A stretch of 64,000 bases of DNA. Source: Minisyncoccota bacterium. Lineage in GTDB: Bacteria; Patescibacteriota; Minisyncoccia; Minisyncoccales; JAGOPM01. Positions 13,289-30,600 of the stretch are shown here, piece after piece. Below the pieces are notes generated by a model. It was not told the DNA's origin, searched no databases, and saw only the letters and a list, made by a program, of their open reading frames with translations. The stretch is taken from positions 315,920 to 379,919 of the forward strand of contig JBAZJI010000001.1 of NCBI GenBank assembly GCA_041651395.1, read 5' to 3'. The stretch's first letter is position 1. Each line of letters opens with the position of its first letter. Both the position numbers and the translations under genes were made by a program.

Positions 13289-13292
13289 CTAA

Positions 13293-13331
13293 AAACAAAT
13301 AGCCCTGAGATTCTCAGGGCTTTTATGTTTG
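13293..13331. repeat. Palindromic element copy 2 (full 39 nt)
   Basis: AAACAAATAGCCCTGAGATTCTCAGGGCTTTTATGTTTG. It lies 5 nt after a separate intrinsic terminator of the 444-aa gene. Confidence 0.9.
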
Positions 13332-13348
13332 GTTTAAGCCAGTTATTA

Positions 13349-13441
13349 TTGACAAAAATATTAAAAAATGTATAGTATAGGGCGCTCAAAATTGAGCGCT
13401 TGCCAGCATTTGTTGGTAAAAATTTACAACTTAAAAGGAGG
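13349..13441 (+). promoter_or_regulatory. Promoter, operator-like palindrome and SD of flotillin gene
   Basis: TTGACA (13349), 16-nt spacer, TG-TATAGT (13371). The inverted repeat GCGCTCAAAATTGAGCGC sits at 13382-13399 over the expected transcription start. AAGGAGG is at 13435. Confidence 0.55.
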
Positions 13442-13448
13442 TTTATTA

Positions 13449-15674
13449 GTGGAAATTGCAGAAATGATGCCTTGGTTGATTGGTATTGGAATAGGGATTG
13501 TGGTTTTGATTGTTTTGCTTTTTATCAAAGCCTCGTTCCATTTCATTCCGGCAGACATGATCGGAGCCGTTAAGAAGAACTTCGGCATCCGGAAACTTAA
13601 GGGAGATCAGATTATTGCCCTCGAAGGTGAGGTCGGCTGGCAGGCAAGCTGTTTGATGCCTGGTTGGCGATTTAAGTTTTGGCCGCTTTATACCGTGAAA
13701 TTGTTCCCGGTTGTCCAAGTGGGCCAAGATGAAATTGGAGTTGTTTTCTCGCAAATTGGAGAAAATATTCCGGTTGGTTGGAGAACGGCTCGCCAAATTG
13801 CAGGAGACACTGAGGAGATTTACTCTGACGTGGGAAGATTTATGCGTGAAGGCGGGCAAAAAGGCATTCAGAGAGCCGTGCTCTCTCCAGGCCACATCTA
13901 CTACATGCACCCGATTGCTTTTGTGGTGAAAACCGCAACCAGCACTTTTGGTATGCCATTCTCTGAATCAGTAGAAGAAACTTTTGGGCAGTATGAGGAC
14001 CAGAAGTACCGGCCCCTTGAAATCAAGACACAGCAGGGTTCAGATGTTGATATTATTGGTTTGGTAACCATCCTTGATGGTCCGCCCAACCCAGATAATA
14101 CTCCGGCTTCTCGCATTGGCGGATTTTCCGATATTCAAGATGCGGAGACGAAGAGGACCGAGGAGGCGAAGAAAAAATACGAGGCTGATATGGAGGCGCT
14201 CGGCGCTAAAGAAAATATTGAGAGGGAGGAATCGAAAAGACAAAAGTTAAGGACAGCAAGAGACAAATTTGATAAAAGTAAGCAGACGCCCGAGGATAGG
14301 CTTGAATACGACGAAGAAGTCCGCAACATCAAACAAATACCCGAAGCTCAAAGGGAATATGAAGAATCAATCCGCAAACTCGGGCTGGATATCATCAACA
14401 TGCTGTTTTTCCAAAGCAAAGTAAATTTGCACAACAGCTACCAAGATATGCAGAAATTCTTCGATGCAGGCGGTTGCCAAGGTTTGCAGCATGATGTCAT
14501 AACTTATGGCAAATATAACTTCAATCCGTTCTTGGTGCGCGTAGAAGAAGCCCGTGGTTTAGTAGTGCCGCAGGGAAAAGTGGCGGTTGTGCGCGCAGGT
14601 GTTGGCTTGGCATCCGAGGATGTTTCCGGCGAAGGATTCAAGCACGGTTTCATAGTTAGGCCGGGCCACAGAGGAATTTGGAACGAGGCTTTGCGCCCGG
14701 GAAAATACCTCATCAACCCACACATCTATGCTACAGAGCTTGTGCCCACTTCTATCATCACGCTAAACTGGGCCAAGGAGACTTCTGTGGCCCACAAGCT
14801 CGATGAAAGGCTCAGTCAAATCAATGCCCGCTCTAAGGAAGGTTTCCAGTTTTCCATTGACCTGCAAGTGCAGATCCATGTTCCAGACACCAAGGCTCCA
14901 TATGTTATCGTCATGGTGGAGAAGATTGACTACCTTGTCTCCGAAGTCTTGCATCCGGCCGTAGGAAACTACTTCCGCGACAAGCTTCAGGGGATGCAGG
15001 CCATCCAATTTATCCAAGAAAGGCAGAAGGTTCAAGAAGAAGCCACAGAACACATTAAGCAGAAGCTTGAAGACTTCAAAGTTGAGTGCTATGGCGTTTT
15101 TATCCAAGATGTTATCCCGCCAGAAGATCTTGTTGATGTTCTCAAAAATGCCGAACTGGCAGTCCAGCAGAAAAAGACTCTTGAGCAGCAGAAGATAACC
15201 GAAGACGCCAGACTTGCTACAGAAAAGTCCAAAGGAGAAGCGGACCAGCAGGCGGCTCTTGCTAAATCGAAAATCGATATTGAAATCAGTCGTAACGCTG
15301 CCGATGCTCAAAAGCTTAGAGCTGAGGGTGAAGGTGGATACAAGGAAAGAATCGGAGAAGCTGAAGGAAAGGCCATCGAAGCTAGAGGTAAAGCTGAAGC
15401 TGAAGTCATCAAGCAAAAAGGTCTTTCTGAGGCAGAGGCTCTTGAAAAGAAGAATAAAGCCTTGGGCGGAGCCGAGGTTGTTGCCAGCATAGAAATCATC
15501 AAGGCGATTGCTGCCAACAATATTAAGATTACCCCCGATATTCTCATCAATGGGGGAGAGAGTGGCGCCGACAAGAGCACAAGCATAGCAACTGCTCTTA
15601 TTGCAAAAATACTCCAAGGAGGAGCTGCACCAAATTCCGCAATAATACCCCCAACAGAAAGCAAAAAATCATAA
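13449..15674 (+). CDS. SPFH/band-7 flotillin-like protein, unusually long
   Basis: GTG 13449 lies 7 nt after AAGGAGG; ATG 13464 is an alternative start. It has an N-terminal TM helix, an SPFH core and a flotillin-type A/E/K-rich C-terminal coiled coil (AEGEGGYKERIGEAEGKAIEARGKAEAEVI). There is an extra K/E/R-rich insert around 14140-14400. Confidence 0.8.
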   Translation: MEIAEMMPWLIGIGIGIVVLIVLLFIKASFHFIPADMIGAVKKNFGIRKLKGDQIIALEGEVGWQASCLMPGWRFKFWPLYTVKLFPVVQVGQDEIGVVFSQIGENIPVGWRTARQIAGDTEEIYSDVGRFMREGGQKGIQRAVLSPGHIYYMHPIAFVVKTATSTFGMPFSESVEETFGQYEDQKYRPLEIKTQQGSDVDIIGLVTILDGPPNPDNTPASRIGGFSDIQDAETKRTEEAKKKYEADMEALGAKENIEREESKRQKLRTARDKFDKSKQTPEDRLEYDEEVRNIKQIPEAQREYEESIRKLGLDIINMLFFQSKVNLHNSYQDMQKFFDAGGCQGLQHDVITYGKYNFNPFLVRVEEARGLVVPQGKVAVVRAGVGLASEDVSGEGFKHGFIVRPGHRGIWNEALRPGKYLINPHIYATELVPTSIITLNWAKETSVAHKLDERLSQINARSKEGFQFSIDLQVQIHVPDTKAPYVIVMVEKIDYLVSEVLHPAVGNYFRDKLQGMQAIQFIQERQKVQEEATEHIKQKLEDFKVECYGVFIQDVIPPEDLVDVLKNAELAVQQKKTLEQQKITEDARLATEKSKGEADQQAALAKSKIDIEISRNAADAQKLRAEGEGGYKERIGEAEGKAIEARGKAEAEVIKQKGLSEAEALEKKNKALGGAEVVASIEIIKAIAANNIKITPDILINGGESGADKSTSIATALIAKILQGGAAPNSAIIPPTESKKS

Positions 15675-15696
15675 GCAGGAATATTCCTGCTTTTTT
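15674..15696 (+). terminator. Intrinsic terminator of flotillin gene
   Basis: AGCAGGA-ATAT-TCCTGCT followed by TTTTT. Confidence 0.75.
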
Positions 15697-15736
15697 AATT
15701 AAAAATCCTCCACTTGAGTAGAGGAAAAACTAACCT

Positions 15737-15775
15737 AAACAAATAGCCCTGAGAATCTCAGGGCTTTTATGTTTG
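15737..15775. repeat. Palindromic element copy 3 (full 39 nt)
   Basis: AAACAAATAGCCCTGAGAATCTCAGGGCTTTTATGTTTG. It matches copy 2 at 38 of 39 positions; the only difference is the central base. It overlaps the stop codon of the minus-strand 180-aa gene. Confidence 0.9.
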
Positions 15776-16309
15776 AATATTATTGAGGGTGGGTGGGAGT
15801 GGCTGCCTTTGGGGCGGCCGGCGTAAGGACCAGGTGCAGTCAATGTCTAGCTTAACGGCTTCTTTGCGGAATTGGTCCATAAGGGGTTGCAGTTCCTTTT
15901 GCCATTTGGTAAAAATTGTAACTTTGGCAGTGTGGCGCATCCCTTCGCCGATTTTTTTGTAAAGCGTGAATTCAATTTTGAATCCAAGCTTGGGTTTGGG
16001 CGCCCCAGAAGGGCTATACCAAAACATCTTGTAAAAATCGTGGACGCGGTAGCGATTGAGGTTTTTTTCTTCCAACCGCCAAGGAACACCATTGGTAAGG
16101 CCTTGGCCTTTTTCGGACATTTTTTTCACCATAACATCGACTATATGCTCCAGCGAGACGCGCCTTTTTTCATCAAGGGAGTATGCCAGATTGATAATCG
16201 GTCGGTCAAAGAGCCGGCGTTCGTTATGGGAATTTTGTCCTGCCCCGGGTTCGCTGACCGGAACAGGTGCGCCATCGGATGTGGCGCAAAGACAAAATTT
16301 CTGTTCCAT
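15767..16309 (-). CDS. Hypothetical protein
   Basis: 180 aa. The minus strand is supported by a consensus promoter (TTGACA-17-TGCTATAAT), a GGAAGGAGA SD and a terminator hairpin. No family recognised. Confidence 0.6.
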   Translation of the reverse strand: MEQKFCLCATSDGAPVPVSEPGAGQNSHNERRLFDRPIINLAYSLDEKRRVSLEHIVDVMVKKMSEKGQGLTNGVPWRLEEKNLNRYRVHDFYKMFWYSPSGAPKPKLGFKIEFTLYKKIGEGMRHTAKVTIFTKWQKELQPLMDQFRKEAVKLDIDCTWSLRRPPQRQPLPPTLNNIQT

Positions 16310-16313
16310 GTCA

Positions 16314-16412
16314 TCTCCTTCCTACCCATTTCGATTTTTAAGATACGACACTGCCACTACGGGTAATAGGGGCGATTGTTGATATTATAGCAAATAATAT
16401 TATATTTGTCAA
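16314..16412 (-). promoter_or_regulatory. Promoter + SD of minus-strand 180-aa gene
   Basis: On the minus strand: TTGACA (16412-16407), 17-nt spacer, TGC-TATAAT (16389-16384), the leader motif AATCGAAA (16336-16329), GGAAGGAGA (16322-16314). Confidence 0.6.
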
Positions 16413-16436
16413 TACGAGGGGAAATAGCCCAAACTA

Positions 16437-16500
16437 TTGATTTTTGTTTATTTTATGCTATAATATATGATAGATAATTAAAAATCGAAAGGGAAAGGAG
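16437..16500 (+). promoter_or_regulatory. Promoter + SD of multi-HTH gene
   Basis: TTGATT (16437), 16-nt spacer, TGC-TATAAT (16459), AATCGAAA (16483), AAGGAG (16495). Confidence 0.6.
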
Positions 16501-16505
16501 TAACG

Positions 16506-17345
16506 ATGCCAATAGAAAACAAATTGGGCATGTTGGAATTTCTTCGCCAAAATATCGGTCAGATGAGCCTGCTAAAAATGGCCCAAGCCCGCAATTTGGA
16601 GCTTGAAGAATTCCGGGAAATTCTCCGATGGTATTTGGACTGCAGTTTGTTGACTCAGCCATTTTCAAAAATGACCACTAAAAAGCTGATTATTAAGTAT
16701 TATGGAATCATACCCAATGCGCGGCTCGCTAAGCTTCTTGGTCTGACCGAACACAGCTTGCGTCAACTAGCCTATGAATTGCGTTCAAAGAAAAAAATGC
16801 TCCCTGAATCTTTTTTCGAGGATGTTATTGCCAAAGAATTGACCTATATTACCACTGATTTGGAAGCCTTGGCCCAAAAGTATAAAGTGAGTTTGGCCGT
16901 GATTTGTAATACTGCCAAAAAGCTTTATGCAGAGGGCAAAATTCCTTCCAAGGTTTGGCGAAAGAAAAAAATTCCTAAGAGGGACCGCTTAACTAATTTG
17001 GAGAAAAAAGTTTTGGAACTCTGCCAGCAAGGCGGGCTAAGCTATGAACAAATCGCCGCTCTTGCCGGTACAACCAAAGGAACGATTGCCCCAATAAAAA
17101 CGCACTTAAGAAAGCTTGGCTATTATTTGCGCGATGAACGCAAATGCCAACCGCGCGCACCCCTTACTGAGTTTCAGGAAAAGGTGCTCCGTTTAAGTAA
17201 TGAAGGCGCCAGTAGTTTTGCCCAGATAGCCATAGAATGCCAATGCGAGAAGATTAAAATAAACAGGGCCCGTGTGCTTTTACGCAAGCGGGGTTACAAA
17301 TTCCCAAATTTGCCCATAGGCCGGCCACCGGCTAAAAATGACTAA
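16506..17345 (+). CDS. Multi-HTH putative DNA-binding protein
   Basis: 279 aa. There are about five helix-turn-helix-like modules. The last two are clear tandem repeats resembling sigma-70 region 4/LuxR HTH (LTNLEKKVLELCQQGGLSYEQIAALAG.. and LTEFQEKVLRLSNEGASSFAQIAIECQ..). Confidence 0.55.
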   Translation: MPIENKLGMLEFLRQNIGQMSLLKMAQARNLELEEFREILRWYLDCSLLTQPFSKMTTKKLIIKYYGIIPNARLAKLLGLTEHSLRQLAYELRSKKKMLPESFFEDVIAKELTYITTDLEALAQKYKVSLAVICNTAKKLYAEGKIPSKVWRKKKIPKRDRLTNLEKKVLELCQQGGLSYEQIAALAGTTKGTIAPIKTHLRKLGYYLRDERKCQPRAPLTEFQEKVLRLSNEGASSFAQIAIECQCEKIKINRARVLLRKRGYKFPNLPIGRPPAKND

Positions 17346-17346
17346 A

Positions 17347-17366
17347 CTGCCTATAAGGCAGTTTTT
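17347..17366 (+). terminator. Intrinsic terminator of multi-HTH gene
   Basis: CTGCC-TATAA-GGCAG followed by TTTTT. Confidence 0.65.
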
Positions 17367-17394
17367 ATTTGCAGAATTTGGGCTCACGCCTATT

Positions 17395-17477
17395 TTGACA
17401 TTTTGAGTTATTATGATATAATATTATAACGAGAAATTATCAATTTCTTGGCTTAATAACCGAATAATAAAAGGAGG
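17395..17477 (+). promoter_or_regulatory. Promoter, leader hairpin and SD of nadE
   Basis: TTGACA (17395), 16-nt spacer, TATAAT (17417), hairpin AGAAATT-ATC-AATTTCT (17432-17448), AAGGAGG (17471). Confidence 0.6.
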
Positions 17478-17482
17478 ATTTG

Positions 17483-19330
17483 ATGCGCAATCTTAAAGTG
17501 GCGATTGGACAAATTGATGTTGTTCCCGGGAATATCGCAATCAATTTGCGAAAATGCTTGGAAACCATAGAAGCCGGTAAGGCACAAGGATGTGAGCTGG
17601 TGGTTTTGCCAGAATTGGCAACCACGGGCTATCTGTTCGGCGACCATTTTGAAAACAGCCAATTCTGCGAGGATGCCAATAATGCTAATTTGGCTATTCT
17701 GGCCGCCTCGAAAGGCATTGCTGTTATTTGGGGAGGCCTAGAAACCGACTTTAGCAAAAAAGGCGAAGATGGCCGGGAAAGGAAATACAATGCGGCCTTT
17801 GCAGCCCAAAACGGTTGCTGGGTAAAAGGCGGAAATGGGAGCGGCGCAACTTATAAGTATCTGCTTCCGGATTACCGTTTTTTCAATGACAAGCGCTATG
17901 TTTATTCCAACCTCCAACTGGAGCAGTCTAAGGCAATGCGCTCGGGAGCGTTGCAAAAACCTTTCGCTTTCCAATTTTTCGGCGAAGAAGTTTTGGTTGG
18001 AGTGCTGATTTGCGAAGACATGTGGACTCAGGACTACGAATTCAAACCCCCGATCCATTTAGTGGATAAGGGCGCTAGAGTTCTGGTCAATGTTTCCATG
18101 TCACCGTTTTCTTGGCACAAGAATCAGACGCGCCATAAAGTGGTCAGTGAAATGTTGCACGATTGCCATGTGCCTTTGCTTTATTGTAACTGTGTAGGCC
18201 TGCAAAACAACTTGAAGAATTACATTGTTTTTGACGGGCGCTCCTCGGTTTACGATTGCGAGGGCAACCTAAGCTATGAGCTGCCACTCTATGAGGAAAA
18301 AATCGCCTTCATCGATTTGAAAATCGAAGGCAATCACCAAAATTCCTGCGTTGTGGCCGAGCAATACGACGACGATCGCGAGCTTTACACTTCGTTGCTC
18401 TATGCCAATAGGCGGATTTTGGAAAGGCACATGCCTAATGGCAAAGTGGTCATCGGCCTTTCGGGCGGAATCGATTCAGCTGTTTCTGCGGCCCTGATGG
18501 TAGAAGCCATCGGGAGCCAAAGGGTGGTGGGAATTAATATGCCGACAAGATTTAATTCCCGTTTGACGCGCGATTTGGCCCGGGAGCTGGCTGGAAATTT
18601 GGGCATCGAGTATAAGGTCATTCCCATTCAGGATCTCTTTGAGGAGACACTCCTGCAACTGCAAAGCGCCGGCGTCTGTTTGAGTGATTTTGACAAACAG
18701 AATGTCCAAGCTCGTCTCAGAATGCAGGTTTTAGCTTCTCTGGCGGCGCATTACAAGGGAATTTTTACCTGCAATGCCAACAAGACTGAGATTTGCTTTG
18801 GCTACTCGACTTTATATGGAGATGTGGCCGGGGCTTATGCGCCAATCGGGGATTGCTTGAAAAGGGAAGTTTATCAGCTGGCCGGATACCATAATCAGGT
18901 AAGCGAGAGAAAAATTCCCCAAGGTATTATTGAGGTGATTCCCAGTGCCGAGCTCAGCGATTCGCAAAAAATCGAAGAGGGTAAGGGTGATCCATTCAAT
19001 TACCGCTATCACGATGAGCTAGTTAGGGCCTTTATCGAATTTGGCCACGATCCGGGAAAAATTTTGCAGCGCTATGACCAGGGCAATTTGGAAAGTTTGT
19101 TGCGCTTAAACCCGGGGGAGTTGGCCGCGATATTTGCCGACCGCCAAGCCTTTGCCAGTGATTTGAGCCAAAAGTGGGCGATGTATAAAAATAATATTTT
19201 CAAACACGCCCAGTGCCCGCCGATTCCGATTATGACGCGCCGGGCTTTCGGCTTTGATTTGCGCGAATGTATTCCGCCCAACGCAATGTCTTATCGCTCG
19301 GAGCTTTTTAATCAACTCCTTGAAAAGTAA
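17483..19330 (+). CDS. nadE: Glutamine-dependent NAD+ synthetase
   Basis: ATG 17483 lies 5 nt after AAGGAGG. N-terminal CN-hydrolase domain (PELATTGY, VLICEDMW) and C-terminal NAD synthetase with the ATP-PPase motif GLSGGIDSAV. Confidence 0.9.
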   Translation: MRNLKVAIGQIDVVPGNIAINLRKCLETIEAGKAQGCELVVLPELATTGYLFGDHFENSQFCEDANNANLAILAASKGIAVIWGGLETDFSKKGEDGRERKYNAAFAAQNGCWVKGGNGSGATYKYLLPDYRFFNDKRYVYSNLQLEQSKAMRSGALQKPFAFQFFGEEVLVGVLICEDMWTQDYEFKPPIHLVDKGARVLVNVSMSPFSWHKNQTRHKVVSEMLHDCHVPLLYCNCVGLQNNLKNYIVFDGRSSVYDCEGNLSYELPLYEEKIAFIDLKIEGNHQNSCVVAEQYDDDRELYTSLLYANRRILERHMPNGKVVIGLSGGIDSAVSAALMVEAIGSQRVVGINMPTRFNSRLTRDLARELAGNLGIEYKVIPIQDLFEETLLQLQSAGVCLSDFDKQNVQARLRMQVLASLAAHYKGIFTCNANKTEICFGYSTLYGDVAGAYAPIGDCLKREVYQLAGYHNQVSERKIPQGIIEVIPSAELSDSQKIEEGKGDPFNYRYHDELVRAFIEFGHDPGKILQRYDQGNLESLLRLNPGELAAIFADRQAFASDLSQKWAMYKNNIFKHAQCPPIPIMTRRAFGFDLRECIPPNAMSYRSELFNQLLEK

Positions 19331-19336
19331 ATAATA

Positions 19337-19359
19337 CGCACCGCTTGGTGCGTTTTTTT
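19337..19359 (+). terminator. Intrinsic terminator of nadE
   Basis: CGCACC-GCTT-GGTGCG followed by TTTTTTT. Confidence 0.8.
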
Positions 19360-19397
19360 GTGCCTTGGGCGATATAAATAAGGAATAAACAAAGTAT

Positions 19398-19457
19398 TTG
19401 ACAAATATTATAAATAGTTTATAATTAAAGAATTAAAAACCTACATATAAAAGGAGG
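19398..19457 (+). promoter_or_regulatory. Promoter + SD of HD-domain gene
   Basis: TTGACA (19398), 16-nt spacer, TATAAT (19420), AAGGAGG (19451), GTG 19463. Confidence 0.6.
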
Positions 19458-19462
19458 ATTGT

Positions 19463-20209
19463 GTGAAGCAAGGGATTGATATTAAAAAAATGAAATCTCT
19501 TTGGTATCGGCTTTTTGGTGTCGACTTAAGACAACCAAACGACATTTTGGACTTATTTTTTTCGACGATCGTCAAGCAATATAGTGACCCTCGTCGGCGC
19601 TATCATGTTTTGTCCCATGTTGAGGAGGGTTTGGATTTGCTTGAAGAGTATCGCGCCTCGGCCAATAGCTATTTTCATGTTGCTTATGCTTTTTGGCTCC
19701 ATGACATTTTCTATAATCCGAAAACGTCAGACAATGAGAAAAATAGCGCATTTTTGGCCAGTGGTTGGTTGGGATTAATTTTGTCCTATATCCCGGCCGT
19801 TCGGATTATGCCCTCAAACAGCCTTGCGCAGGAAATCAGCAATAATCAAGGACTGGTGACTGACCTGATTTTGGCCACGCGCCATCAAGAACGCCAAATC
19901 GATCCTGATTGTCAGCTGATTTGCGATCTTGACCTCTATCGCTTGACCGGCGACTTCCAGAAAGAGGACATTGAGGACATCCGTTTCGAATACATGCACC
20001 TTGGTGAAAAAGAATGGGTAATTGGTCGCTTGAAATTTTTACGGGGTATTTTGGAACGAGGCTATATTTTCCAGACCCCGGAATTTATTTTGCGGTTCGA
20101 GGAAAAAGCGCGCCAAAACATCAAATCCCAAATTGTTGAATTCGAAAATAAGCTCGCCGCGCTTAATAGGCCCAAAAGCAACTTTAACCTCCTTACAATT
20201 TTCAGCTGA
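19463..20209 (+). CDS. HD-superfamily phosphohydrolase-like protein
   Basis: 248 aa. GTG start after AAGGAGG. The motifs RRYHVLSHV and FWLHDIFYNP resemble the uncharacterised HD-family group (COG4339-like). Confidence 0.5.
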   Translation: MKQGIDIKKMKSLWYRLFGVDLRQPNDILDLFFSTIVKQYSDPRRRYHVLSHVEEGLDLLEEYRASANSYFHVAYAFWLHDIFYNPKTSDNEKNSAFLASGWLGLILSYIPAVRIMPSNSLAQEISNNQGLVTDLILATRHQERQIDPDCQLICDLDLYRLTGDFQKEDIEDIRFEYMHLGEKEWVIGRLKFLRGILERGYIFQTPEFILRFEEKARQNIKSQIVEFENKLAALNRPKSNFNLLTIFS

Positions 20210-20214
20210 ACAAA

Positions 20215-20243
20215 CCCAGACAGAACCTGTCTGGGTCTTTTTT
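20215..20243 (+). terminator. Intrinsic terminator of HD-domain gene
   Basis: CCCAGACAG-AAC-CTGTCTGGG followed by TCTTTTTT. Confidence 0.8.
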
Positions 20244-20330
20244 AATTTTCCACAGGCAAAAATGTATTAAATTTGTCGAGCGCAGAGTATAATTAGGCAA
20301 GCAAGGCTGTTTGCGTGGCCGTTGCTTTTT

Positions 20331-21113
20331 ATGGAGTATAAGAGGTTGTTATACATAATTTTCATATTATTCATATCGCTGACTAGCGTGCATATTTTGG
20401 TGGAGGCGGCTACTTCCGATGCTTATAAAAGCAGCCAGGATAATGCCGGGCCCATGCCTTTTAATGCTTCGACGAGTAATTATAATTTTAAGGCAGTCGT
20501 CGGGGAGCCGGGTTCGGGTATCTCTACCTCGACTAATTATATTTATGAGCACGGCGTGTTCTGGGATCAGGAGCAGGCCAGCACCACTTGCACTATAAAA
20601 TGGGCTACGCCTGAGGGCCGTAGTGGCACAGCCGAAACCAATGACCATGTTACTTTTTATTTAATTGTTAAGGGTGGCGGTAGTACGGTTTTAATTACGC
20701 CCTTGGCCACTACTTCGCATGCGGGCACAACCAGTGAGCAAATTGATTTATCTATTTTGGGTCCGGGCTCTTACGATATCGGGATAAAAACCAACCAACA
20801 CATCACCAAAATGTTGCGGGGAGTCGCTATTGCTACCGGGACAAATGTTTTGAATTTTACCCAAGCCAATAATAGTTCACCTAAGGGCAGCGTGCGGCTT
20901 TTGGCCGGTGATGTGAACGGTGCCGGCAATACCACCTCTACATTGGGAGATGATGTGGTAAATTCCGTGGACGCTTCATTGATTATTTCCCAACTCGATC
21001 AGACCGACCCTACCAATGATACTTACCGGGGGAATTTGAATTTTGATTCGGTTGTCAATGCGGTAGATTTGTCGCTTTTGATAAAAAATTTAGATGTGCA
21101 CGGAGATCAGTAA
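20331..21113 (+). CDS. Secreted protein with C-terminal dockerin-like repeats
   Basis: ATG 20331 gives a signal/anchor sequence. The C-terminus carries two Ca-loop/helix repeats: GDVNGAGN..DDVVNSVDASLIISQL and GNLNFDSVVNAVDLSLLIKNL. Confidence 0.55.
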   Translation: MEYKRLLYIIFILFISLTSVHILVEAATSDAYKSSQDNAGPMPFNASTSNYNFKAVVGEPGSGISTSTNYIYEHGVFWDQEQASTTCTIKWATPEGRSGTAETNDHVTFYLIVKGGGSTVLITPLATTSHAGTTSEQIDLSILGPGSYDIGIKTNQHITKMLRGVAIATGTNVLNFTQANNSSPKGSVRLLAGDVNGAGNTTSTLGDDVVNSVDASLIISQLDQTDPTNDTYRGNLNFDSVVNAVDLSLLIKNLDVHGDQ

Positions 21114-21176
21114 AGAAAATCCTGAATTTTAATTCCAAAGAATTAAGTCCGAAAGAAATAAAAAAGAAATCAAAAT

Positions 21177-23534
21177 ATGAAAGCGCAGAATATAATTTCA
21201 TATTTCTTCATCGCCGCACTTTTGTTGTGCTTTGGCCTGACGGCCGTGGCGGCAGCGCCCAGCGGCAACCATTGGTTTCAAATAATTGCCCAAACCTATA
21301 CCGGCAGTGATGCTACCGGAGATGGCGGCACAGGCGATGCTTCGGATTTTAATTACTATTATGTTGGCCAAACTTTCCGCGGGACAGTGCAAATAAAGTC
21401 CACCGGCACTACGGCTGCTAATATCAAATTAACTTATCCGACTGCTTACCTGACGATTTCCAATTTGCTTGCCGGCTCCTATTTTACCGAATATCCTTCC
21501 ACCGGGCAGGCTACTTCCAGCGGCATTGTCCGTTTAACCGGAACCAGAATGTCTGGTGTTTCTTCGGCTACCGGAACATTTGGTTATATTGATTTTGTAA
21601 TGGGCACATCTTCGGCCTGTAATTATTCCACGACTAGTTACCAAACACTTTCTTTTACGACGAGCACCAACGGTTTAGGTGATGTTTCCAGTATTGCTTA
21701 TCAGGGTATTAATTATTTGGATAGTAAAGAAGATTTTAATTTTCACATTTGGGCGGATTTGAAAAATCCTTTCGCCACCGGGACTAATATAACCAACGCT
21801 TCAACTGGCGTGCCTGTCGACCTTAATTACATTTTTGCCTTACGCGATACCAAGAATGGTTCGAGCAGCAATACTGGAGTTGGCACGGGCATTAATACGG
21901 CCGCCGGCGGCCGAACTTTGACTTTTAATGACGGCACAGGGGCAACGAGCTACTTGGCTTATACTTCATATAGCTGTTCTGGCACTTGGAACACTAATTG
22001 CACCACGACCGTGAACCCGGATAGCCCATTGGCTATTACCGGAGATACGCGTAATTGGAAGTATAATACTTCCTATACTATTAATGTTTCCGGATACGCT
22101 GACCGGGCTTCGACGGCGCAAGCTAATACCTCTTGCCCGGGAGAGGCTAATGGCCCCAATAGTATGGATGCCTCCACTTGGACTTTTACCACCGAGTCTG
22201 ACACCATTGCCCCCAGTGTTTCTTCGACTTCGCCTGCCGCCGGAGCTTCGGGCGTGGCCACAACATCTAATGTGGTTGTAGAAATAATTGATATTAAAGC
22301 GGCTAACATTTCCGGTGAGGGTGTTTCTTCCACCAGCTGTCAAATAGATTTGAATGTTCCTTCTTGGGGCGGCACTTGGGTGAGCTTCGATTCCGCCACT
22401 TCAACTGTTACGGTTACGCCCATCAATTATGGTTATCGTTACACTATTGATCCTTCCAGTAATTTCGCACAAAACGAAACTGTCTCCGCCAGAATCCGTA
22501 ATTGCTATGATTTGGCCAATAATGTGAGTTCTACTGATCCGCTCCTTTCTTGGACATTTGCCACGGCCGATAATGACCCGCCTTATGTCACGCCCGTTAA
22601 CCCGGTTGATAAACAGTCGATCGTGGATACTGCGGCTATAGTTTTTAACTTGCGCGATTTGGGCGTGGGCGTGAGCTTGGCCAATACTTTCATTTATGTC
22701 GATGGTTTATGGTGGTCTAATGCCGGTGGTTCGGGCACGATTGCTACCAGTGGAGCTAATATTGCCTTTGCCACGAGCAATAATTTCAACGGAGGGAATT
22801 ATGCCGGCGACACTTCAGGGATTTCCGCTATTGCTAATGGCTATACTTTTACCCTAAAAAAACAAGGGGCTTTTACCACAGGCTCAATACCCATTGAGGT
22901 ATTTTCCCGCGATACTTCCAATAATTTAATGCATCGTTATTTGTATGGGGCGGTAGCGGGCACAGCGACTTGCGCGTCGAGCACCTGTTATGATAATAAT
23001 TGCTGCTCTAGCGGCACGACTTGGAATGGTTTGACTTGCACGGCCACTTTAGGCAGTGCTTATTGCGGTTCTAATACCTCCTGGAACGGTAGTCTTTGTA
23101 TTGGCTCTGCTTCAAGTGGAGGAATGAGTGCGGGCGGTGGCGGTGGCTTGCCGGGCAAGGATTATTGCGGTTCCAATACGCGATGGGATGGCCGTAAATG
23201 TATTGCTTCGAGCACGGCCGCAGTGGCTAAGTGTATACCCACCACCCAAACAAAGTTTATCGAAATTCCCAAAGAAATTACCAAATACATTTCGATCCCG
23301 AAAATCGAATATCGTTTCGTCGAGAGAGCTGCTGAAGAGCAAAAAGTGGAGCCGATAAACCGTAAGCTTTTAGAAAATCTTTTAGCTATTTTAAGCGTGG
23401 CCGATCGGGCGCCGCAGGATGGTAAGGACGATTTACAGGACATCAAAATCGTGGAAATTCCTCAAGTTGGAGAAACTATCAGAGTAACCGGTAGGGCGCA
23501 GCCCGGACAAAAATTGAAAATAATTGTCAAATAA
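21177..23534 (+). CDS. Secreted multidomain protein: cohesin-like N-domain, SbsA-type Ig-like domains, Cys-motif repeats; C-terminal Ig domain truncated by stop
   Basis: 785 aa with a signal peptide. Ig-like segments begin DTIAPSVSSTSPAAGASGV and DNDPPYVTPVNPVD. The motif C-x-S-N-T-x-W-(N/D)-G-x-x-C occurs three times. The ORF ends inside an Ig-like domain (see findings). Confidence 0.55.
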   Translation: MKAQNIISYFFIAALLLCFGLTAVAAAPSGNHWFQIIAQTYTGSDATGDGGTGDASDFNYYYVGQTFRGTVQIKSTGTTAANIKLTYPTAYLTISNLLAGSYFTEYPSTGQATSSGIVRLTGTRMSGVSSATGTFGYIDFVMGTSSACNYSTTSYQTLSFTTSTNGLGDVSSIAYQGINYLDSKEDFNFHIWADLKNPFATGTNITNASTGVPVDLNYIFALRDTKNGSSSNTGVGTGINTAAGGRTLTFNDGTGATSYLAYTSYSCSGTWNTNCTTTVNPDSPLAITGDTRNWKYNTSYTINVSGYADRASTAQANTSCPGEANGPNSMDASTWTFTTESDTIAPSVSSTSPAAGASGVATTSNVVVEIIDIKAANISGEGVSSTSCQIDLNVPSWGGTWVSFDSATSTVTVTPINYGYRYTIDPSSNFAQNETVSARIRNCYDLANNVSSTDPLLSWTFATADNDPPYVTPVNPVDKQSIVDTAAIVFNLRDLGVGVSLANTFIYVDGLWWSNAGGSGTIATSGANIAFATSNNFNGGNYAGDTSGISAIANGYTFTLKKQGAFTTGSIPIEVFSRDTSNNLMHRYLYGAVAGTATCASSTCYDNNCCSSGTTWNGLTCTATLGSAYCGSNTSWNGSLCIGSASSGGMSAGGGGGLPGKDYCGSNTRWDGRKCIASSTAAVAKCIPTTQTKFIEIPKEITKYISIPKIEYRFVERAAEEQKVEPINRKLLENLLAILSVADRAPQDGKDDLQDIKIVEIPQVGETIRVTGRAQPGQKLKIIVK

Positions 23535-23535
23535 T

Positions 23536-24582
23536 ATGGCTGAACCGCAAATATACGAAGTAACAGCCGACCAAAATGGTAACTGGGAAGTAAATCTCCC
23601 TAATACTTTTGGCAATGGGGTACATGCCGTGACCGCTATTGATCAGGATGGTAATAAGGATGCAGTCGTGGTGGATATTAAGGGCGAACCGGAAACCAAA
23701 ACTGTGGTACAGGAAAAAATCGTTACGCAGGAAGTAGTTAAGGAAATTATGCCACAAGGTTTGTTTCTTTGGGTAACGCTGCTTTATTTAACGGCTATGC
23801 TGGTATCTTTGGGAATGATTTATTTTTCCCGCAAAGCCAAAGAACAGGACGGCAGCCAATCCAAAGCCAAAGGTGTGGGGTTGGTTTTCGGGGTTTTGGT
23901 TATGATTTTGGCGACTGTACTTTATATTTATGCTTCTTATTCTTTTGGCTTAATAAAAAGCTTGGCCCTGAAAGACAATATAATGCAGGCCTCACTGGTT
24001 TCTTTGGCACGCCAAGCTAAAGAAGATGTCCGGCATATAAACATAGAAGGTATTGTCACGGATCCGACTACTAAGCAAGGTTTGGAAGGGGTAAGCATTT
24101 CTGCGGGCTCAACCGTTGTTAAAACACCTAAGGGCGGTGAGTTTGCTTTGGGCTCTATAGTGGAAGGCGAGGGTGTCAAAATCGATTACCCGGTTTTAAG
24201 CCGACCCTTGCGCTATAAAGCCAAAGAAGGTAAGCAGGAAATTATTTTTGACCCCATGCTTTATAATGCAGCTATCAAAGTGACTGATTTGGAAGCGCAC
24301 AATAAGGTAGATGGCATATATTTGGAAATGCTCTCCACGGCCAATCAGCAGAAATTATCATTGGATGAATTTGTTAAGAATTATCAAAAGGGTTTTAATA
24401 AGCTCAATGAAGTAATGCCGGAATTGATTGTTTTGGATGCGAATGTGCATAGCCCATGGAGTTCGCCCCAATATGCGGTGCAATACCCGATGGTTGTGGA
24501 ATTAAAATTAGGAAACGGTCAGGGCGGGGAAAGTAATTATTTTTTTGCTCTCGAGGAAGGGATGTGGAAGTTAGTTCAGTAA
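23536..24582 (+). CDS. Membrane protein carrying the second half of the split Ig-like domain, two TM helices and a CarboxypepD_reg-like domain
   Basis: ATG 23536 follows the upstream stop after a 1-nt gap, in the +1 frame. N-terminus YEVTADQNGNWEVNLP..GVHAVTAIDQDGNKD, then two TM helices, then IEGIVTDPTTKQGLEGVSISAG. It may be the 3' part of a frameshifted single gene. Confidence 0.5.
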   Translation: MAEPQIYEVTADQNGNWEVNLPNTFGNGVHAVTAIDQDGNKDAVVVDIKGEPETKTVVQEKIVTQEVVKEIMPQGLFLWVTLLYLTAMLVSLGMIYFSRKAKEQDGSQSKAKGVGLVFGVLVMILATVLYIYASYSFGLIKSLALKDNIMQASLVSLARQAKEDVRHINIEGIVTDPTTKQGLEGVSISAGSTVVKTPKGGEFALGSIVEGEGVKIDYPVLSRPLRYKAKEGKQEIIFDPMLYNAAIKVTDLEAHNKVDGIYLEMLSTANQQKLSLDEFVKNYQKGFNKLNEVMPELIVLDANVHSPWSSPQYAVQYPMVVELKLGNGQGGESNYFFALEEGMWKLVQ

Positions 24583-24604
24583 TTACCATTAAATTTTCAA
24601 AAAG

Positions 24605-27600
24605 ATGCCTAAAAACATCAAACAATTGTCAGTTAAAATAATTATCGCGACGTTTGGCATGGCGCTTTTGGCAGTCACGGCTTGGGCGGCAACACCGTCT
24701 TTCATGAATTACCATTCGCGGCTACGTGATGCTTCGGGTTTCCCGATTTCGGCGAGCACTTCTATCCGTTTTACGATTTATAATGACGCCACCAACGGCA
24801 ATGGTAATACGCAGGCAACTTCAGCCGGCGGGCCGGTATTATGGAGCGAGCTTTACGATCAAGGCCTTGGTAATTGCGCCCAAGTCCAACCTGATGACCG
24901 CGGTTACTTTACGGCTAAACTCGGTTCTTGCATACCATTCCCTCCAAATTTGGATTTTACTACCAGCACACTTTATTTAGGTGTAACTATCGGCACGGAT
25001 TTATCCAGCAATACCGAGGCTAGCCCGCGGGTGCAATTTGGGGCCGCCCCTTATGCTTTTAATGCCAAGCGCGTTGGTAATTTTTATGACAGTGGTGCAA
25101 ATTCTCTTGTTGGGGAAGCTTTGGGCACGGCCACGGCCGGGAGCAATTTTAATTCAGCTTCATTTTTACTCAATGGTTCGGCATGGACTGGGAGTGCTGC
25201 TACTTCGGTTTCCATGGTTTTGCAAAATATTGTTACTAGCCAAACAGTTTACAAATTGCAAGTCGCCAATGCCTCTGGCGCGGAATTATTTTCTATAAAT
25301 CAATCCGGTGTGGCTTCAACAACGCAATTAGTTGTGGCTCAAGCTATGCAGTTTACCAGCACAACACCAACCATTACTTTGGGAAGTAACGATTCTGCCG
25401 GTATTCTGACAGTTAAAGATAGCGCGGCCACCCCTAATACATTAATGGCACTTTCCGATTCGGGCACGGCAGGGCTTTTGACCGTGGGCACGGTTTCGAC
25501 CACCCAGTTTGTTTTAGGAGTCGATTCCATAACTGATTTGACCGGCGCCGGTCTTAAAGTAGTCGCCAATGCTTTGCGTGCGGAAATTAATTTGTCTACC
25601 GATCAGGTAACTAGCACTTTAGGAATTGATAATGGTGGCACCAATGCCACTTCCGGGCAGCTGACCGCCAATCAAATAATTGTTTTTGACGGCACACGAA
25701 TGATTACCACCGGGTATCGGGTTGTGGATTTTATGTCGAGCAGTTCGGTTACTACCAGCCAATTTACCGTGCTTGGCGATACTTATCTGGCTACCACTAC
25801 CATCTCGACAACTTTGACTGTGCAGGGCAATACTTATTTGGCCACCACTAGCTTAACCTTTCTTAATGCCAGCACGGTTAATGCGGCAAACGCATCTTTT
25901 ACCAATGCTACCTCAGGCAATTTGTATGTTTATAATTCAACGGCCGGCAATTCTACTACCACTAATTTATATGTGAGTAATTCGGCAACATTCAACACTA
26001 CAACCTTTAATGGCCCGGTTACAATGGCCACTACCACCGTTAGCCTCCTTAACGCCTCAAGCTCATTTTTTACCAATGCCACAGCTACCAATTTTTACGC
26101 AAGTAATTTTACCGCCTCAACGGGAACTTTTACCGGGCATTTATCTTTTACCACCGCTTCGGGCACGGCCTTGACTTTGACGAGTAATTTATGGACCGGG
26201 GGAATGCTTCAGGTTACCGGCACATCCACGTTGGCAACAACTACCATTGCGGCACTTACGGTTTCGGGCACCTCCACTCTGGGGGCAACAGTACTTTCCG
26301 GCTTTACTGCGGGATCGGCTTTGTTCGTTGGGGCTAATAGCCAGATCGCTCAAGATAATTCCAATTTTTATTGGGACGATACCAATAATCGTTTAGGTTT
26401 GGGCACCTCCACACCGGCCCAACGTTTGACAATCAATGGCGGAAACATTTTCCAATATTCGACCGGAACAATTTCCAAAATCAGTTCCTCTTCGGCTAAT
26501 TACGCCAACGGGCTTTCACTAAGCGGGAAGATTTTGGCAGTTTCCGATAATGATAGCGGGGCAGGCAACGCTCACTTAGATTTTTACGATATTTCTGATC
26601 GCGCCAATATGTCTTTGCTAAGCACTTATACATCCGTTCAGACTTCCGATTACATGGAGGAGGTTTTTATTGCCAGCAATTTCGCTTATACAGCTGCCTC
26701 TTCAGGAATGCACATTATTGATATTTCCAATCCCAAAGCGCCAGTTTTGGCTGGATTTTATGCTACACCCTCCACAACTAAAAGCATTTATGTTTCCGGT
26801 AAATATGCCTATTTAGGAGTTTCAAAAGGCACGGGCGTTGGTGGGCTTTATGTAATTGATATTTCTTCTTCCACTAATCCGGTTTTGACGGGAAATGTCG
26901 CAGTTAATACTGGCAGTAACCATGTTTTTGATATCGTTGTGCGCGGCAAGTATGCCTATTTGGCAGCCGATGGTGATGGATTAAAGATTGTTGATATTTC
27001 CAACCCGGCAAGTCCGGCGGTGGTTGGGACATATTATTCTGCCGGTCCCACTAATCCTTCGGGCTATGCTGCGGGAGTTTATGTTTCTGGTAAATATGCC
27101 TATTTAGCCGATCTTTCAGATGGATTAGATAATGGTGGAATGAAAATTATTGATATTTCCGATCCGACAAGTCCAACTCTTGCTGCCAATTATGATTTAG
27201 GTGCGCGTTCGGTCAATAATATTATTGTTAACGGGCGATACGCTTATTTGTCAATTTATAATTTTACGAACGGTGAATTGCAAATCGTGGATATTGCGAG
27301 CTCTACTGCACCATTTTTAACATCTAAATATGCCGATAATTTGATTTATGATGTTGCACTTTCGGGCAAAACGGCATTTGTGGCTGACTGGACTGGAGGA
27401 GTAGTGGCGCTCGATATCAGCGGTGCTGATTTGCCGACTCTCAACGCGGGCAATATCGAAACTAGTTTTGCCAACATCACGGAAAATGCCGTGGTGGCCA
27501 ATTCTTTGTATGTGGGCAGCGGTTTGACCGTGGGCCCTTCGGGCATCAAATCAGGTGGTGGTTTGGCTTTTGATTCTACAAGTTCTGCATCGTATTTTGC

Positions 27601-30600
27601 TTATCGCTTGGGCATTGGCACAACTACGCCTGCCTATCCCTTAGATGTGGTGGGCAATGCCAGAATAAGTGGCACAACTACGCTTGGCGCTTATGATATA
27701 ACAAAATATTCCGGAACCGATAATCAAGTTTTAACTTATGTCTCCGGCAAAGCGGTGTGGCAAACTCCGGCAGGCGGTGGCTTGCCTAATGGTACGGTTG
27801 GTTACACCTTAGTGAGTGGTGGCGGAGCGACATGGAACGCTACTAATACTTTGGTTGTAACTTCTTCGGCTCTTGGTTATCGAGTGGGTATCAATACGAC
27901 AACTCCGGCTTTTTCTTTGGATGTAGCGGGCACGGTTAATGCTTCGACTAGCGGTTATCGTCTGGGAACAAATAAGGGAATTATGCACGTTAGTACGAGC
28001 GCCGCACTCACTTCATGGACGCCCAATGGCGCTAATTCGGCAGGCGGGCTTTTTGTGGAGAGTGGGGCTGATGGCGGTTTCTCTGGCCTTTATATGGATG
28101 AGGATATGATAAAATTGGTGACTGGAGCTTCTGGCAATTTTTACCTCATGAATGGAGTTAATGCCACTTCCTTCTCTTTTGTCAGTGGTGGCGGTTTTGG
28201 TATGAATGGTGGGGCTAATAGTTTCATTTGGGCTACTTCTAATCCCAGCGCTATGAGCCCCGGGGTTGGGCGTTTGGGCATTTTGGAAAAAACCGGAACC
28301 GATGCGGTAGAAGTCCGCGATGCCGACTTGGCGGTTTATGGCACATCGACCATGCGCAATATTTTACCCGAAGCCAATTTAACTTACAGTTTGGGCAATG
28401 CCTCATATCGTTGGCTTAATATGTATGCCTCCACTACCTATATTGGTTCGGGCACTTGGCAGCTTTTGCAAGAAGGCGGCTCTGGCGCCTTTATCATCCA
28501 AGATACGGGTGGCAATCGGGCAGGCTTGCTTTATGTTTCCTCTACTAAAGGTGTAGCTATCGGGACCACGACCGTGATGAGTCAGGCCTTTAATTTAGAT
28601 GGTGCTGCCCTGTTTATTCCTACCAGTACCACTCCGGCTTCAGTAACCGGTTCGATGTATTACGATTTGACTAATAATCGATTCAGCTTTTTCCAGAATG
28701 GCGCTTGGAGTTCTTATACGGCGGCCAGTGGCACAGCCATGACCGGTGTGGCGGCCGGGTATAATTCCGTAGCATATTGGGCGGATAATAGTACGTTGGC
28801 GGGTACTTCCACATTTATTTATAATGCCACTTCTTCGCAGTTGGGCTTGGGTGCCACTTCTTCGCAGCTTTCCGCCATGTTGCAAATTAATACCACTGGC
28901 ACAATTTTTAATAATTTGCTTTTAAGTCGAACGCATAAAGGCGAAGGCGAATTGACAATCCAATCTAACACTACTTCTATCGCAATAAATTCATTGGAGC
29001 TTGGCACAATGGCCTTTGGCAATGTTTCATTGGGTCCTTCAGCTGGTGTGGTAGCTCTTGGCGGAGTCACAGCAATTGGATATCAGGCGGGGCATGTAAC
29101 AGTTGCCAGTACAACATTGGTTGGATATCAGGCGGGGTTATCTGGGCCAGGGATTGGTTTAACGGCAATCGGATATCAGGCAGCCACTGCAAATGGCGGA
29201 GGTGCATTTAATACAGCAGTTGGCTATTCCGCCTTGGCTGCTAATAGTTCCAATGATAATACGGCCGTTGGGTATAATTCCCTTGCATTAAATGCTGCCG
29301 CGAACAATACTGCTTTTGGCTCACAATCATTGAGCGTGAATGTTAATGGAATTGATAATACCGCAATCGGATATCATTCCATGAAGGCATTTAATCCAGC
29401 TTCAAGCGATGCAAATAATACTGCGGTCGGTTCCGATGTTTTACCTAATTTGCAGCAGGGAAGTGGAAATACAGCCCTTGGTTACAACACCGGACTAACA
29501 CAGTCAAGTGGTGATTCCAATATTTTTCTTGGCTCAAATATTCAGGCGGAGCCCGGATATACAACTGCGGATTATCGTTTATATATTGATGCGGACGCAC
29601 CGGATATGAACACTCCTGTTCCTCCCACTCCGCCATTTCAGTATGCGATTGTCGGGCAATTAAAAAATGTGGCCGCTGACGGAACCTATGGCCGCATACC
29701 GCACAATGCGATTGGCATCAATTCTTCGCAGGCTGATCTTGATGCGTCGCTGCTAAATTTTTATGTCTATGGCGCGGCCGGTGGTACGACGCCTTGGAAT
29801 ACTCTTTCGGATGCAAACCTTAAAGATGTTAATGGTGATATTTTTGGTTCGGCTTTAGGGATTGTAAATGCATTGCATCCCGTAAAGTATAAATGGAATG
29901 ATTTGGCGAACCAAGAATTCCAGCTCAATCAAAACGCAGAAAATTATGGATTTTTGGCGCAGGAGGTCAATAATATTCTGCCTTCAATAGTTGGTTCCGG
30001 TGGAAAATATTGGATGATGCGTTATGAAGGTATTATCCCGATTCTTACCGCCGCCATTCAGGAACAGCAAGCCCAAATCGAGGCTCTTAGGGTTGCCACT
30101 TCGAGCTTTGCTGGCAATGTTACGGTTAGCGAGCTTAAAGTGGAAGGGAGGCTGATTGTTAAAGATAACGTGACATTGGGCCTTGATACGGTTGGTCAAG
30201 TTATGGTGCCCACAGGGCAAGCCAGTGCGCATATTGCTTTCAGTAAAGCTTATGATACTTTGCCCATTATTACTGTTACGCCTATTGGCATAATTGACGC
30301 CAAATTTGGGGTGGATAATATTACCAAGTCTGGTTTTGATCTGGTGGTCAGCCCGGCCCAGAACCAAGAAATGTTCTTTAATTGGCACGCCTTTGCCATT
30401 GCCGACGAAACTAAGATTATCGTAGCTAATAGTTCGCCTGTTGTAGCTGCGCCTTTTGTCCCGAGTGTGCTGCCCACAAGTACCCCCGAAGTTGCCCCAA
30501 CCTCCACAGAGGCTGTGAATTCCAGCAGCAGTGAGCCGATAATTAATAATGAAATAGCTACATCCTCGGTCTCTTCCACTTTACCCGAGGCGGTAAGCAG

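Follow-up and report, generated by a model that had tools for sequence, protein, structure and literature searches.

A conserved Patescibacteria gene cassette that pairs an X-module-dockerin with a cohesin stalk protein and a membrane protein, likely for non-cellulosomal surface display

Background

Cellulosomes are attached to cells by type II cohesin-dockerin pairs, whose link is mediated by calcium; roles for cohesin-dockerin pairs beyond polysaccharide degradation have so far only been proposed (PMC12484212, a 2025 review). Here we analyze a 64,000-nucleotide stretch of DNA from a Minisyncoccota bacterium (contig JBAZJI010000001.1, positions 315,920 to 379,919; hereafter, the window), which belongs to the Candidate Phyla Radiation (CPR), or Patescibacteria. 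Four of its genes, termed A, B, C, and D, lie in series on the forward (+) strand, and direct reading shows that their junctions are short or overlapping. An original prediction made from the sequence had proposed that A ends in a dockerin, that B begins with a cohesin, and that the two form a cognate pair outside any cellulosome. Our analysis indicates that both modules are very probably a genuine cohesin and dockerin. Moreover, A, B, and C, often with D, likely make up an operon that is conserved in Patescibacteria and encodes a cohesin-dockerin device for surface display outside any cellulosome.

The closest described systems are type II complexes between a cohesin and an X-module-dockerin (XDoc), in which an immunoglobulin (Ig)-like X module precedes the dockerin. 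Examples are the CipA XDoc with the SdbA/ScaA cohesin of C. thermocellum (2b59, 5k39, and 5m0y) and complexes of A. cellulolyticus (4u3s and 4wi0). The Ig-like domain and dockerin of A fit these structures best, and in both systems the cell-anchored partner bears the cohesin and the incoming one the XDoc. However, scans of the window found no scaffoldin, enzymes, or carbohydrate-binding module (CBM), and the stoichiometry presumed here is 1:1. Other differences are that the first calcium loop of A carries a conserved 9-residue insertion, that the cohesin of B has conserved, family-specific flanks, and that its fold matches do not separate cohesin types I, II, and III, at a sequence identity of 10-20%. 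The anchor proposed here is a split Ig domain on a protein with two transmembrane (TM) segments, whereas type II systems use SLH modules or sortase, and the host is a CPR bacterium.

A type III complex offers a second precedent. In Ruminococcus flavefaciens, the CttA XDoc and the ScaE cohesin mount a non-enzymatic, adhesion-type protein on a wall-anchored single cohesin. The mounting logic and polarity match those of the present locus, and type III cohesins (5n5p and 5lxv) are among the fold matches of B. Unlike A, CttA has cellulose-binding modules and is part of a cellulosome. The second canonical calcium loop is missing from type III dockerins (PMC12484212), whereas in A the second loop is the canonical one.

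Cohesins from outside cellulosomes, namely those of Archaeoglobus fulgidus (2xdh) and of the Clostridium perfringens toxin complex (2jh2, 2vo8, and 2w1n), occupy ranks 10, 21, 22, and 35 among the fold matches of B, and they likewise represent use of cohesins and dockerins outside cellulose degradation. Such non-cellulosomal modules are reportedly widespread in all three domains of life, as a survey by Peer et al. in 2009 is said to have found. In contrast to these, A and B are so divergent that precomputed Pfam annotation misses both. The literature that we searched contains no description of a conserved syntenic cassette of XDoc, cohesin, and membrane anchor, nor of any cohesin-dockerin pair in Patescibacteria.

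A further relative is the Pam pilus (bioRxiv 10.64898/2026.03.03.709456), a CPR-specific appendage with Ig-like surface components that is assembled by strand complementation. This principle is apparently used at the junction of B and C as well, and the head of A is homologous to the N terminus of PamT, which has been proposed as the tip subunit of this pilus. However, the attachment proposed here, by cohesin and dockerin, is not mentioned in that report, and no Pam pilins or chaperones occur among the neighboring genes scanned.

Results and discussion

The cohesin module of gene B

Gene B (21177-23534) encodes a 785-amino-acid stalk protein that is predicted to be exported. Its cohesin module spans amino acids 27-205 (nucleotides 21255-21791), with a Pfam core at amino acids 62-166 (21360-21674). 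This core includes the two strings on which the original prediction had based its cohesin assignment (GQTFRG...ISNL at amino acids 64-97 and GTFGYIDFVM at 133-142).

When amino acids 27-205 were scanned in isolation, the Pfam family Cohesin (PF00963) matched amino acids 62-166 with 26.3 bits (E=9.3e-6), which exceeds the Pfam gathering threshold (GA) of 24.1. Scans of full-length B against Pfam and NCBIfam returned Big_5 and no cohesin, a false negative that the isolated-domain scan mends. The match falls in the region, at residues ~60-170, where the original prediction had staked itself on finding a cohesin; a naive full-length scan would have led to its false rejection. Within the B family, 7 of 31 members match the Pfam profile at E<=1.

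An AlphaFold model of amino acids 27-205, built with 31 sequences, has a mean predicted local distance difference test (pLDDT) value of 83.6 and a predicted template modeling (pTM) score of 0.83. The model is an elongated β-sandwich that is superposable on solved cohesins. In a Foldseek search of PDB, cohesins occupy ranks 1-40 and account for 47 of the first 48 matches, with E values down to 1.5e-6 and template modeling scores up to 0.73. One adhesin domain that is not a cohesin, CLIPPER (9ifr), is also among the fold matches. Matches are at 10-16% identity, and types I, II, and III are interleaved with similar scores.

A hidden Markov model (HMM) search of 1.84 billion representative sequences defines a tight cohesin family, with 29 matches at E<=1e-30. 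In the strong full-length matches, the cohesin is single and N-terminal. Of ten sequences tested from the weak tail of this search, nine are Pfam-certified cohesins, and some of these belong to proteins with several cohesins or with a dockerin. Conservation within the module peaks outside the Pfam core, in flanks that are specific to this family: TGxD[NA]TGDGGTG (amino acids 42-53, 21300-21335) and NYYYVGQ in front, and TTESNIS..G.D.LDDAEDF..H.WAD..KP behind (amino acids ~168-198, 21680-21770). Because these flanks are rich in Asp and Gly, they may form a metal- or partner-binding surface.

The X module and dockerin of gene A

Gene A (20331-21113) encodes 260 amino acids from the ATG at 20331, which is the start chosen by gene callers and in the original prediction. 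The open reading frame (ORF) opens at a TTG at 20322, and residue numbers given here refer to this 263-amino-acid ORF (20322-21113). From N to C terminus, the protein consists of a hydrophobic, signal-peptide-like segment, a PamT-like head, an Ig-like X module, and a dockerin. Its 51 homologues all carry Patescibacteria names.

The dockerin module (amino acids 190-263, 20889-21110) contains two segments, each with a calcium loop and a helix. By definition, a dockerin loop is a 12-residue EF-hand-like calcium loop with Asp or Asn at positions 1, 3, 5, 9, and 12, followed by a helix (PMC12484212). The second segment, GNLNFDSVVNAVDLSLLIKNL (amino acids 237-257, 21030-21092), conforms to this pattern. 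Its loop reads N238-L-N240-F-D242-S-V-V-N246-A-V-D249 and continues into LSLLIKNL, for which a helix is predicted, in keeping with its original description as near-canonical. The first segment, GDVNGAGNTTSTLGDDVVNSVDASLIISQL (amino acids 196-225, 20907-20996), has an insertion, AGNTTSTLG, between loop positions 4 and 5. Alignment to the canonical 12-residue loop gives this insertion nine residues instead of the seven counted originally, and its length is constant in 24 of 24 aligned family members. All five ligands of the interrupted loop (D197, N199, D210, N214, and D217) are present and conserved, and the helix that follows is predicted with pLDDT values of 55-60.

Profile searches, the check that had been suggested for both modules, also identify this dockerin, here with the full-length protein. 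Dockerin_1 (PF00404) matches amino acids 209-257 with 25.5 bits (E=1.6e-5; GA 22.9), and the match begins only past the insertion. Among the 24 aligned homologues, 11 have Dockerin_1 matches at E<=0.01. Conservation in the A family is highest over the C-terminal ~72 residues, with a mean column identity of 72%. In both loops, Asp or Asn is invariant or nearly so at ligand positions 1, 5, 9, and 12; at position 3, loop 2 shows no variation and loop 1 has N or S. A loop-to-helix motif, V-N-S-V-D-L-S, is common to both segments and is among the most conserved features of A.

The domain that precedes the dockerin (amino acids 89-189, 20586-20888) is an Ig-like β-sandwich whose position and fold are those of a cellulosomal X module. 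An AlphaFold model of mature A, based on a 45-sequence alignment, has a pLDDT of 70.9 and a pTM of 0.63. The Ig-like core reaches a pLDDT of ~90, the two-helix dockerin region is of moderate confidence, and the N-terminal ~55 residues are poorly defined. Each of the ten best Foldseek matches in PDB is an X-module-dockerin chain from a type II complex. Chains matched include 4u3s_B, 4wi0_B, 5m0y_B, 2b59_B, 5k39_B, and 5g5d_B, and the CipA Coh9-X-DocII chains of 4fl4 and 3kcp. Matches to XDoc chains have E values of 2e-5 to 1e-3 over ~180 aligned columns that span both the Ig domain and the dockerin; transthyretin-like and pilin sandwiches rank below them, past a clear gap. The model indicates that the Ig-like domain and dockerin of A form one full XDoc unit.

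The A and B family profiles each select one chain of the same complex when compared with PDB sequences. The best match of the A profile is the dockerin 2y3n_B (E=0.028), with CelS dockerins also detected weakly, and the best match of the B cohesin profile is the type II cohesin 2y3n_A, which is likewise weak (E=0.15). Single-sequence phmmer searches of PDB sequences with A and B returned nothing relevant. The possibility that cohesin and dockerin are paralogues was rejected, as hhalign detected no relationship between the B cohesin family and the A family. Precomputed annotation records a dockerin or cohesin in none of 43 B homologues and none of 51 A homologues.

Linkage of the two modules across Patescibacteria

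A scan with the cohesin alignment, using one genome per species in GTDB r232, yielded 45 loci, and 20 kb was inspected in each related genome. These loci span Uhr-, Magasanik-, Peregrini-, Peri-, Vogel-, and Nomurabacteria and Paceibacterota. According to the family HMMs, every one of the 45 loci has exactly one A-type dockerin ORF beside the cohesin gene. In 41 loci this ORF is upstream and co-oriented, and it directly abuts the cohesin gene at all of these except locus L008; in the other four it is inverted right beyond C. The six-frame ORFs of the window likewise contain one A-type dockerin and one B-type cohesin. These counts lend strong, though indirect, support to the cognate pair that had been proposed originally. 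Because the adjacency survives local rearrangement over deep lineages, A and B appear to be a dedicated functional pair, and this linkage is the strongest evidence available here for such a pair. On balance, we think it likely that A binds B and that the two thereby contribute to surface display.

A cohesin region with 98% identity to that of B is present in a Patescibacteria metagenome-assembled genome (MAG; locus L005, CAZQSQ010000001.1). Its label, 'Candidatus Saccharibacteria', should be treated with caution. Twelve of the records (L010, L015-L017, L022-L024, L026, L027, L031, L033, and L045) are titled 'uncultured Gammaproteobacteria bacterium'. They derive from binchicken co-assemblies, and the titles are probably automatic mislabels.

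Adjacency could also reflect mere co-regulation of envelope genes, with modules that are genuine but are not mutual partners, such that A docks onto a cohesin encoded at another site of the genome and B, as a hub of the kind found in cellulosomes, recruits other proteins that bear dockerins. Some B variants (P0015, P0032, P0033, P0034, L020, and L025) bear on this explanation. They lack both the split-Ig tail described below and a C partner, and have instead a C-terminal dockerin-like tail, which implies that further cohesins exist in those genomes. With an N-terminal cohesin and a C-terminal dockerin, such variants have an adaptor-scaffoldin-like architecture. The tails of P0032 and P0033 score 21.6 and 19.2 bits in Pfam, slightly under GA. 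However, these tail dockerins are of another, canonical subtype, which escapes the A-type HMM. Other CPR envelope proteins with dockerin domains do exist, among them SEML1_0315, which is essential and stand-alone, and the regions surveyed amount to 64 kb of this genome and 20 kb per related genome. Nonetheless, the window holds no second module of either subtype, core-family B proteins have one cohesin that is always N-terminal, and each of the 45 loci retains one A-type dockerin even where gene order is rearranged. For these reasons, we regard the hub explanation as unlikely.

The essential S. epibionticum 'dockerin' protein SEML1_0315 was also considered as a homologue of A and was rejected, as it is encoded by a stand-alone 927-amino-acid gene beside hydrolase and tRNA genes.

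A second alternative, which we consider improbable, is that the two proteins have cohesin-like and dockerin-like folds and no plug-and-socket function. The B sandwich would then be an adhesin or ligand-binding tip, and the C terminus of A a calcium-stabilized EF-hand pair belonging to an independent secreted protein (for instance, an assembly factor, cap, or matrix protein). To our knowledge, many non-cellulosomal cohesin-like and dockerin-like modules are without a demonstrated partner. In addition, the CLIPPER domain among the cohesin fold matches is itself an adhesin, identity to solved cohesins is as low as noted above, the first dockerin loop is atypical, and headless homologues of A carry no obvious cargo. 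However, two independent modules, each one half of a known interaction, are co-inherited in every genome in which they were found, and A matches the entire XDoc dyad, not merely an EF-hand pair. The helix and recognition positions of V-N-S-V-D-L-S are also among the most conserved in A, which suggests a conserved partner surface.

No carbohydrate-active enzyme, CBM, or further dockerin or cohesin was detected among the window ORFs scanned. The features of a cellulosome are thus missing there, as had been supposed. The idea of a simple two-component surface module can be refined, as there are at least three parts, the third being membrane protein C, and often a D-like fourth.

The stalk of B and its membrane partner C

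B begins with a signal-peptide-like segment (amino acids 1-26), followed by the N-terminal cohesin, Ig-like domains, Cys-rich repeats, and a C-terminal half Ig domain. Its Ig-like stalk domains (amino acids 206-598, 21792-22970) include a Big_5 match at amino acids 342-463 (22200-22565; 32.6 bits), and B homologues have matches to Big_5, fn3, and Pur_ac_phosph_N. Between the Ig stalk and the tail is a Cys-rich region (amino acids 599-686, 22971-23234) with 10 cysteines and three repeats resembling C-G-S-N-T-x-W-x-G-x-x-C, a motif that is kept in the B family consensus. Pam pilins are likewise noted for disulfide-stabilized extracellular modules. The tail (amino acids 756-785, 23442-23531) corresponds to the first strands of an Ig domain of the Big_6/Big_13 type, and it ends ...G.A.P..K[IL]K.II[YK] directly before the stop codon.

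Gene C (ATG at 23536, extending to 24582) encodes a 348-amino-acid protein. Its head (amino acids 1-49, 23536-23682) appears to complete the Ig domain begun in B. Two hydrophobic segments follow, TM1 at amino acids 75-97 (23758-23826) and TM2 at amino acids 113-140 (23872-23955), the latter preceded by a K/R-rich loop and followed by a C-terminal domain of ~210 amino acids. The N-terminal tail of C has 13 acidic and 5 basic residues, and the loop between the TM segments has 5 basic and 2 acidic residues. Because of this acidic tail and the K/R-rich loop, the protein fits a topology with both termini outside the membrane.

The junction of B and C is tight. In the window it reads TAA-t-ATG, and in 23 loci the gap from stop codon to ATG is 1-6 nucleotides, with C in frame 0, +1, or +2 relative to B depending on the genome. 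Because the ATG of C lies 1-6 nucleotides past the stop of B in all three frames, the junction is one of translational coupling and not of frameshifting. We also considered whether the split marks a frameshifted pseudogene or a site of recoding and rejected both, as the split is conserved and occurs with these gaps in all three relative frames. Across loci L005-L048, B and C are separate genes in most lineages and fused in others; where they are separate, B always ends inside the Ig domain with the tail motif given above.

C is either fused to B or directly follows it in 36 of 38 assessable loci. In seven long B homologues, B and C are naturally fused, and two TM helices precede a C-like domain. 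When the last 50 residues of B are joined to the first 75 of C, the composite is collinear across the junction with one such fusion, P0035. The joined tail and head pass the Pfam thresholds for Big_6 (29.6 versus 27.6) and Big_13 (27.1 versus 27). By itself, the B tail has no Pfam match, and the C head has sub-threshold matches to the back half of these profiles only. These observations suggest that the B tail and C head are two halves of one Ig domain that is split over two polypeptides. B would then be held on C non-covalently by β-strand complementation, and the opposite end of the stalk would carry the cohesin.

The C terminus of B is presumably its attachment end, because variants of B replace the anchor with the dockerin-like tail or, in the distant homologues P0040 and P0042, with a single C-terminal TM helix.

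The variable head of A

Whereas the XDoc is the constant part of A, the N terminus varies. It is absent in about one third of the family, most members have a module of ~55 residues with S-T-N-Y/F motifs, and some have 100-250 extra residues. In the window, this head (amino acids 29-88, 20406-20585) has repeated S-T-N-Y/F motifs and is modeled with pLDDT values of 40-55.

The head is homologous to the mature N terminus of PamT. Eight of eight diverse head modules, stripped of signal peptides, match positions 27-81 of the NCBIfam PamT profile NF058579 with E values of 4e-6 to 5.5e-4. Of 24 full-length A members, 15 match this profile (best E=9.4e-9). However, full-length A from the window scores 23.2 bits over positions 5-82 of 241, far from the equivalog cut-off of 240 bits. 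The head is a module common to A and PamT, and A itself is not a PamT equivalog. Apart from the match of A, no Pam-family match was found by NCBIfam scans of genes A-D and of the ORFs at 50-19330 and 30642-39630, which speaks against a pam operon at this location. The simplest reading is that one head module is mounted in two ways, on an XDoc and in PamT. Its role may be adhesion.

PamT kinship raises a last alternative, in which A is a PamT-like tip subunit of a divergent Pam-type donor-strand pilus and joins B by β-strand exchange, with the cohesin and dockerin likenesses secondary; although the head homology, the apparent strand complementation at the B-C junction, and a weak fold resemblance of A to FimA (type V pilins) and to the basal pilin SpaB would suit it, these fold matches rank below XDoc, the PamT match covers only the first third of the profile and falls far short of its cut-off, no PamA, PamB, PamC, PamD, PamE, or PamR was found among the neighboring ORFs scanned, and the conserved part of A is the XDoc and not the often-missing head, such that this explanation is very improbable.

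A proposed surface display device

The favored interpretation remains a display device in which A is mounted on B and B on C. Both A and B open with a single hydrophobic segment and an A-x-A-like site, and because of these features we infer that their N termini are Sec signal peptides. Sec would export both proteins. B would be tethered at the membrane where its last ~30 residues and the first ~50 of C build one Ig domain, and the tight stop-to-ATG junction would yield roughly equal amounts of the two proteins. The cohesin would thereby sit at the distal end of the stalk, away from the membrane. The dockerin of A, folded around two calcium ions and buttressed by the X module, would plug into this cohesin in a 1:1, type II-like complex. 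The head of A would then be displayed at the tip, where it would most likely contact a host cell or a surface polymer.

Several points weigh against this interpretation. Binding between A and B is deduced from domain identity and linkage. Pfam scores for both modules are only 2-3 bits over threshold, and the cohesin match vanishes in the full-length scan. In the A model, confidence is no more than moderate over the dockerin (pLDDT 48-80), and the 9-residue insertion in the first calcium loop is unusual. Competing cohesins and dockerins were sought only within the 64-kb window of this genome. The signal peptides, the topology of C, and the adhesive role are predictions from sequence. Finally, with about one third of A homologues headless, a cap or structural role fits as well as one in carrying cargo. 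A profile search with the dockerin alone for other cargo proteins returned just short ORF fragments and was uninformative.

A broader version of the display model can be offered tentatively. The cassette might be a tip-display appendage of Patescibacteria, in which C holds B by the split Ig domain and B holds an XDoc protein with an exchangeable head. If the same head also caps Pam pili, one host-recognition module might be used on two appendages, and the cassette might be a core determinant of episymbiotic attachment.

Transcription unit, gene D, and neighboring genes

An intrinsic terminator of the gene before A (20214 to 20236 or 20246, + strand) has a 10-base-pair stem with 6 G-C pairs and a T-run. 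It is the strongest terminator-like site in 19300-32000, and no comparable one occurs between A and D. This terminator marks the 5' boundary of an A-B-C(-D) transcription unit.

Gene D (24605-30619) encodes a giant surface protein of 2004 amino acids. It has 6 LVIVD repeats, a Peptidase_S74 intramolecular-chaperone domain of the tail-fiber/endosialidase type, and a weak H-lectin match. The N-terminal 160-270 amino acids of D reappear right after C at no fewer than 14 other loci (L006, L010, L013, L018, L022, L026, L029, L031, L034, L035, L036, L045, L046, and L048), and the remainder varies. A D-like giant protein is therefore a frequent, though not universal, fourth member of the cassette. 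A 'tail fibre-like' protein is a conserved neighbor of pam operons (bioRxiv 10.64898/2026.03.03.709456), a likeness to D with its tail-fiber-type S74 domain.

The window has a GC content of 42-47%, and nearly all of its genes are on the + strand. Housekeeping genes lie on either side of the cassette, with SHMT, GatB, NadD, and NAD synthase upstream and a nucleoside phosphorylase, MtnA, and metal and ABC transporters downstream. Three large ORFs of 1609, 444, and 890 amino acids (4966-9795, 11932-13266, and 42833-45505) have no Pfam match, and the first two have no NCBIfam match either. They may encode further unannotated envelope proteins of this CPR genome.

Conclusions

Non-cellulosomal cohesin-dockerin modules are already known. 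What appears to be new here is a cassette of XDoc, cohesin, and split-Ig/two-TM anchor in CPR bacteria. The A/B family also exposes a blind spot in annotation: because the cohesin passes Pfam only when scanned alone, and no A or B homologue is annotated, MAG census studies that count cohesins and dockerins would miss it. Small orthogonal cohesin-dockerin pairs of this kind would be useful parts for protein engineering.

Little has been established about the way in which the ultra-small CPR/Patescibacteria cells adhere to hosts or surfaces, and most of their envelope proteins lack annotation. For many of their lineages, the cassette provides a concrete and testable model of attachment, consisting of a minimal 1:1 cohesin-XDoc link on a membrane-anchored stalk. 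It suggests two ideas about assembly, namely that a domain split over two polypeptides can serve as an anchor and that a head module is held in common with the Pam pilus tip. If the model is correct, it would extend the cohesin-dockerin principle, including its mechanically strong X-dockerin form, to this superphylum and to a role unrelated to plant cell-wall degradation.

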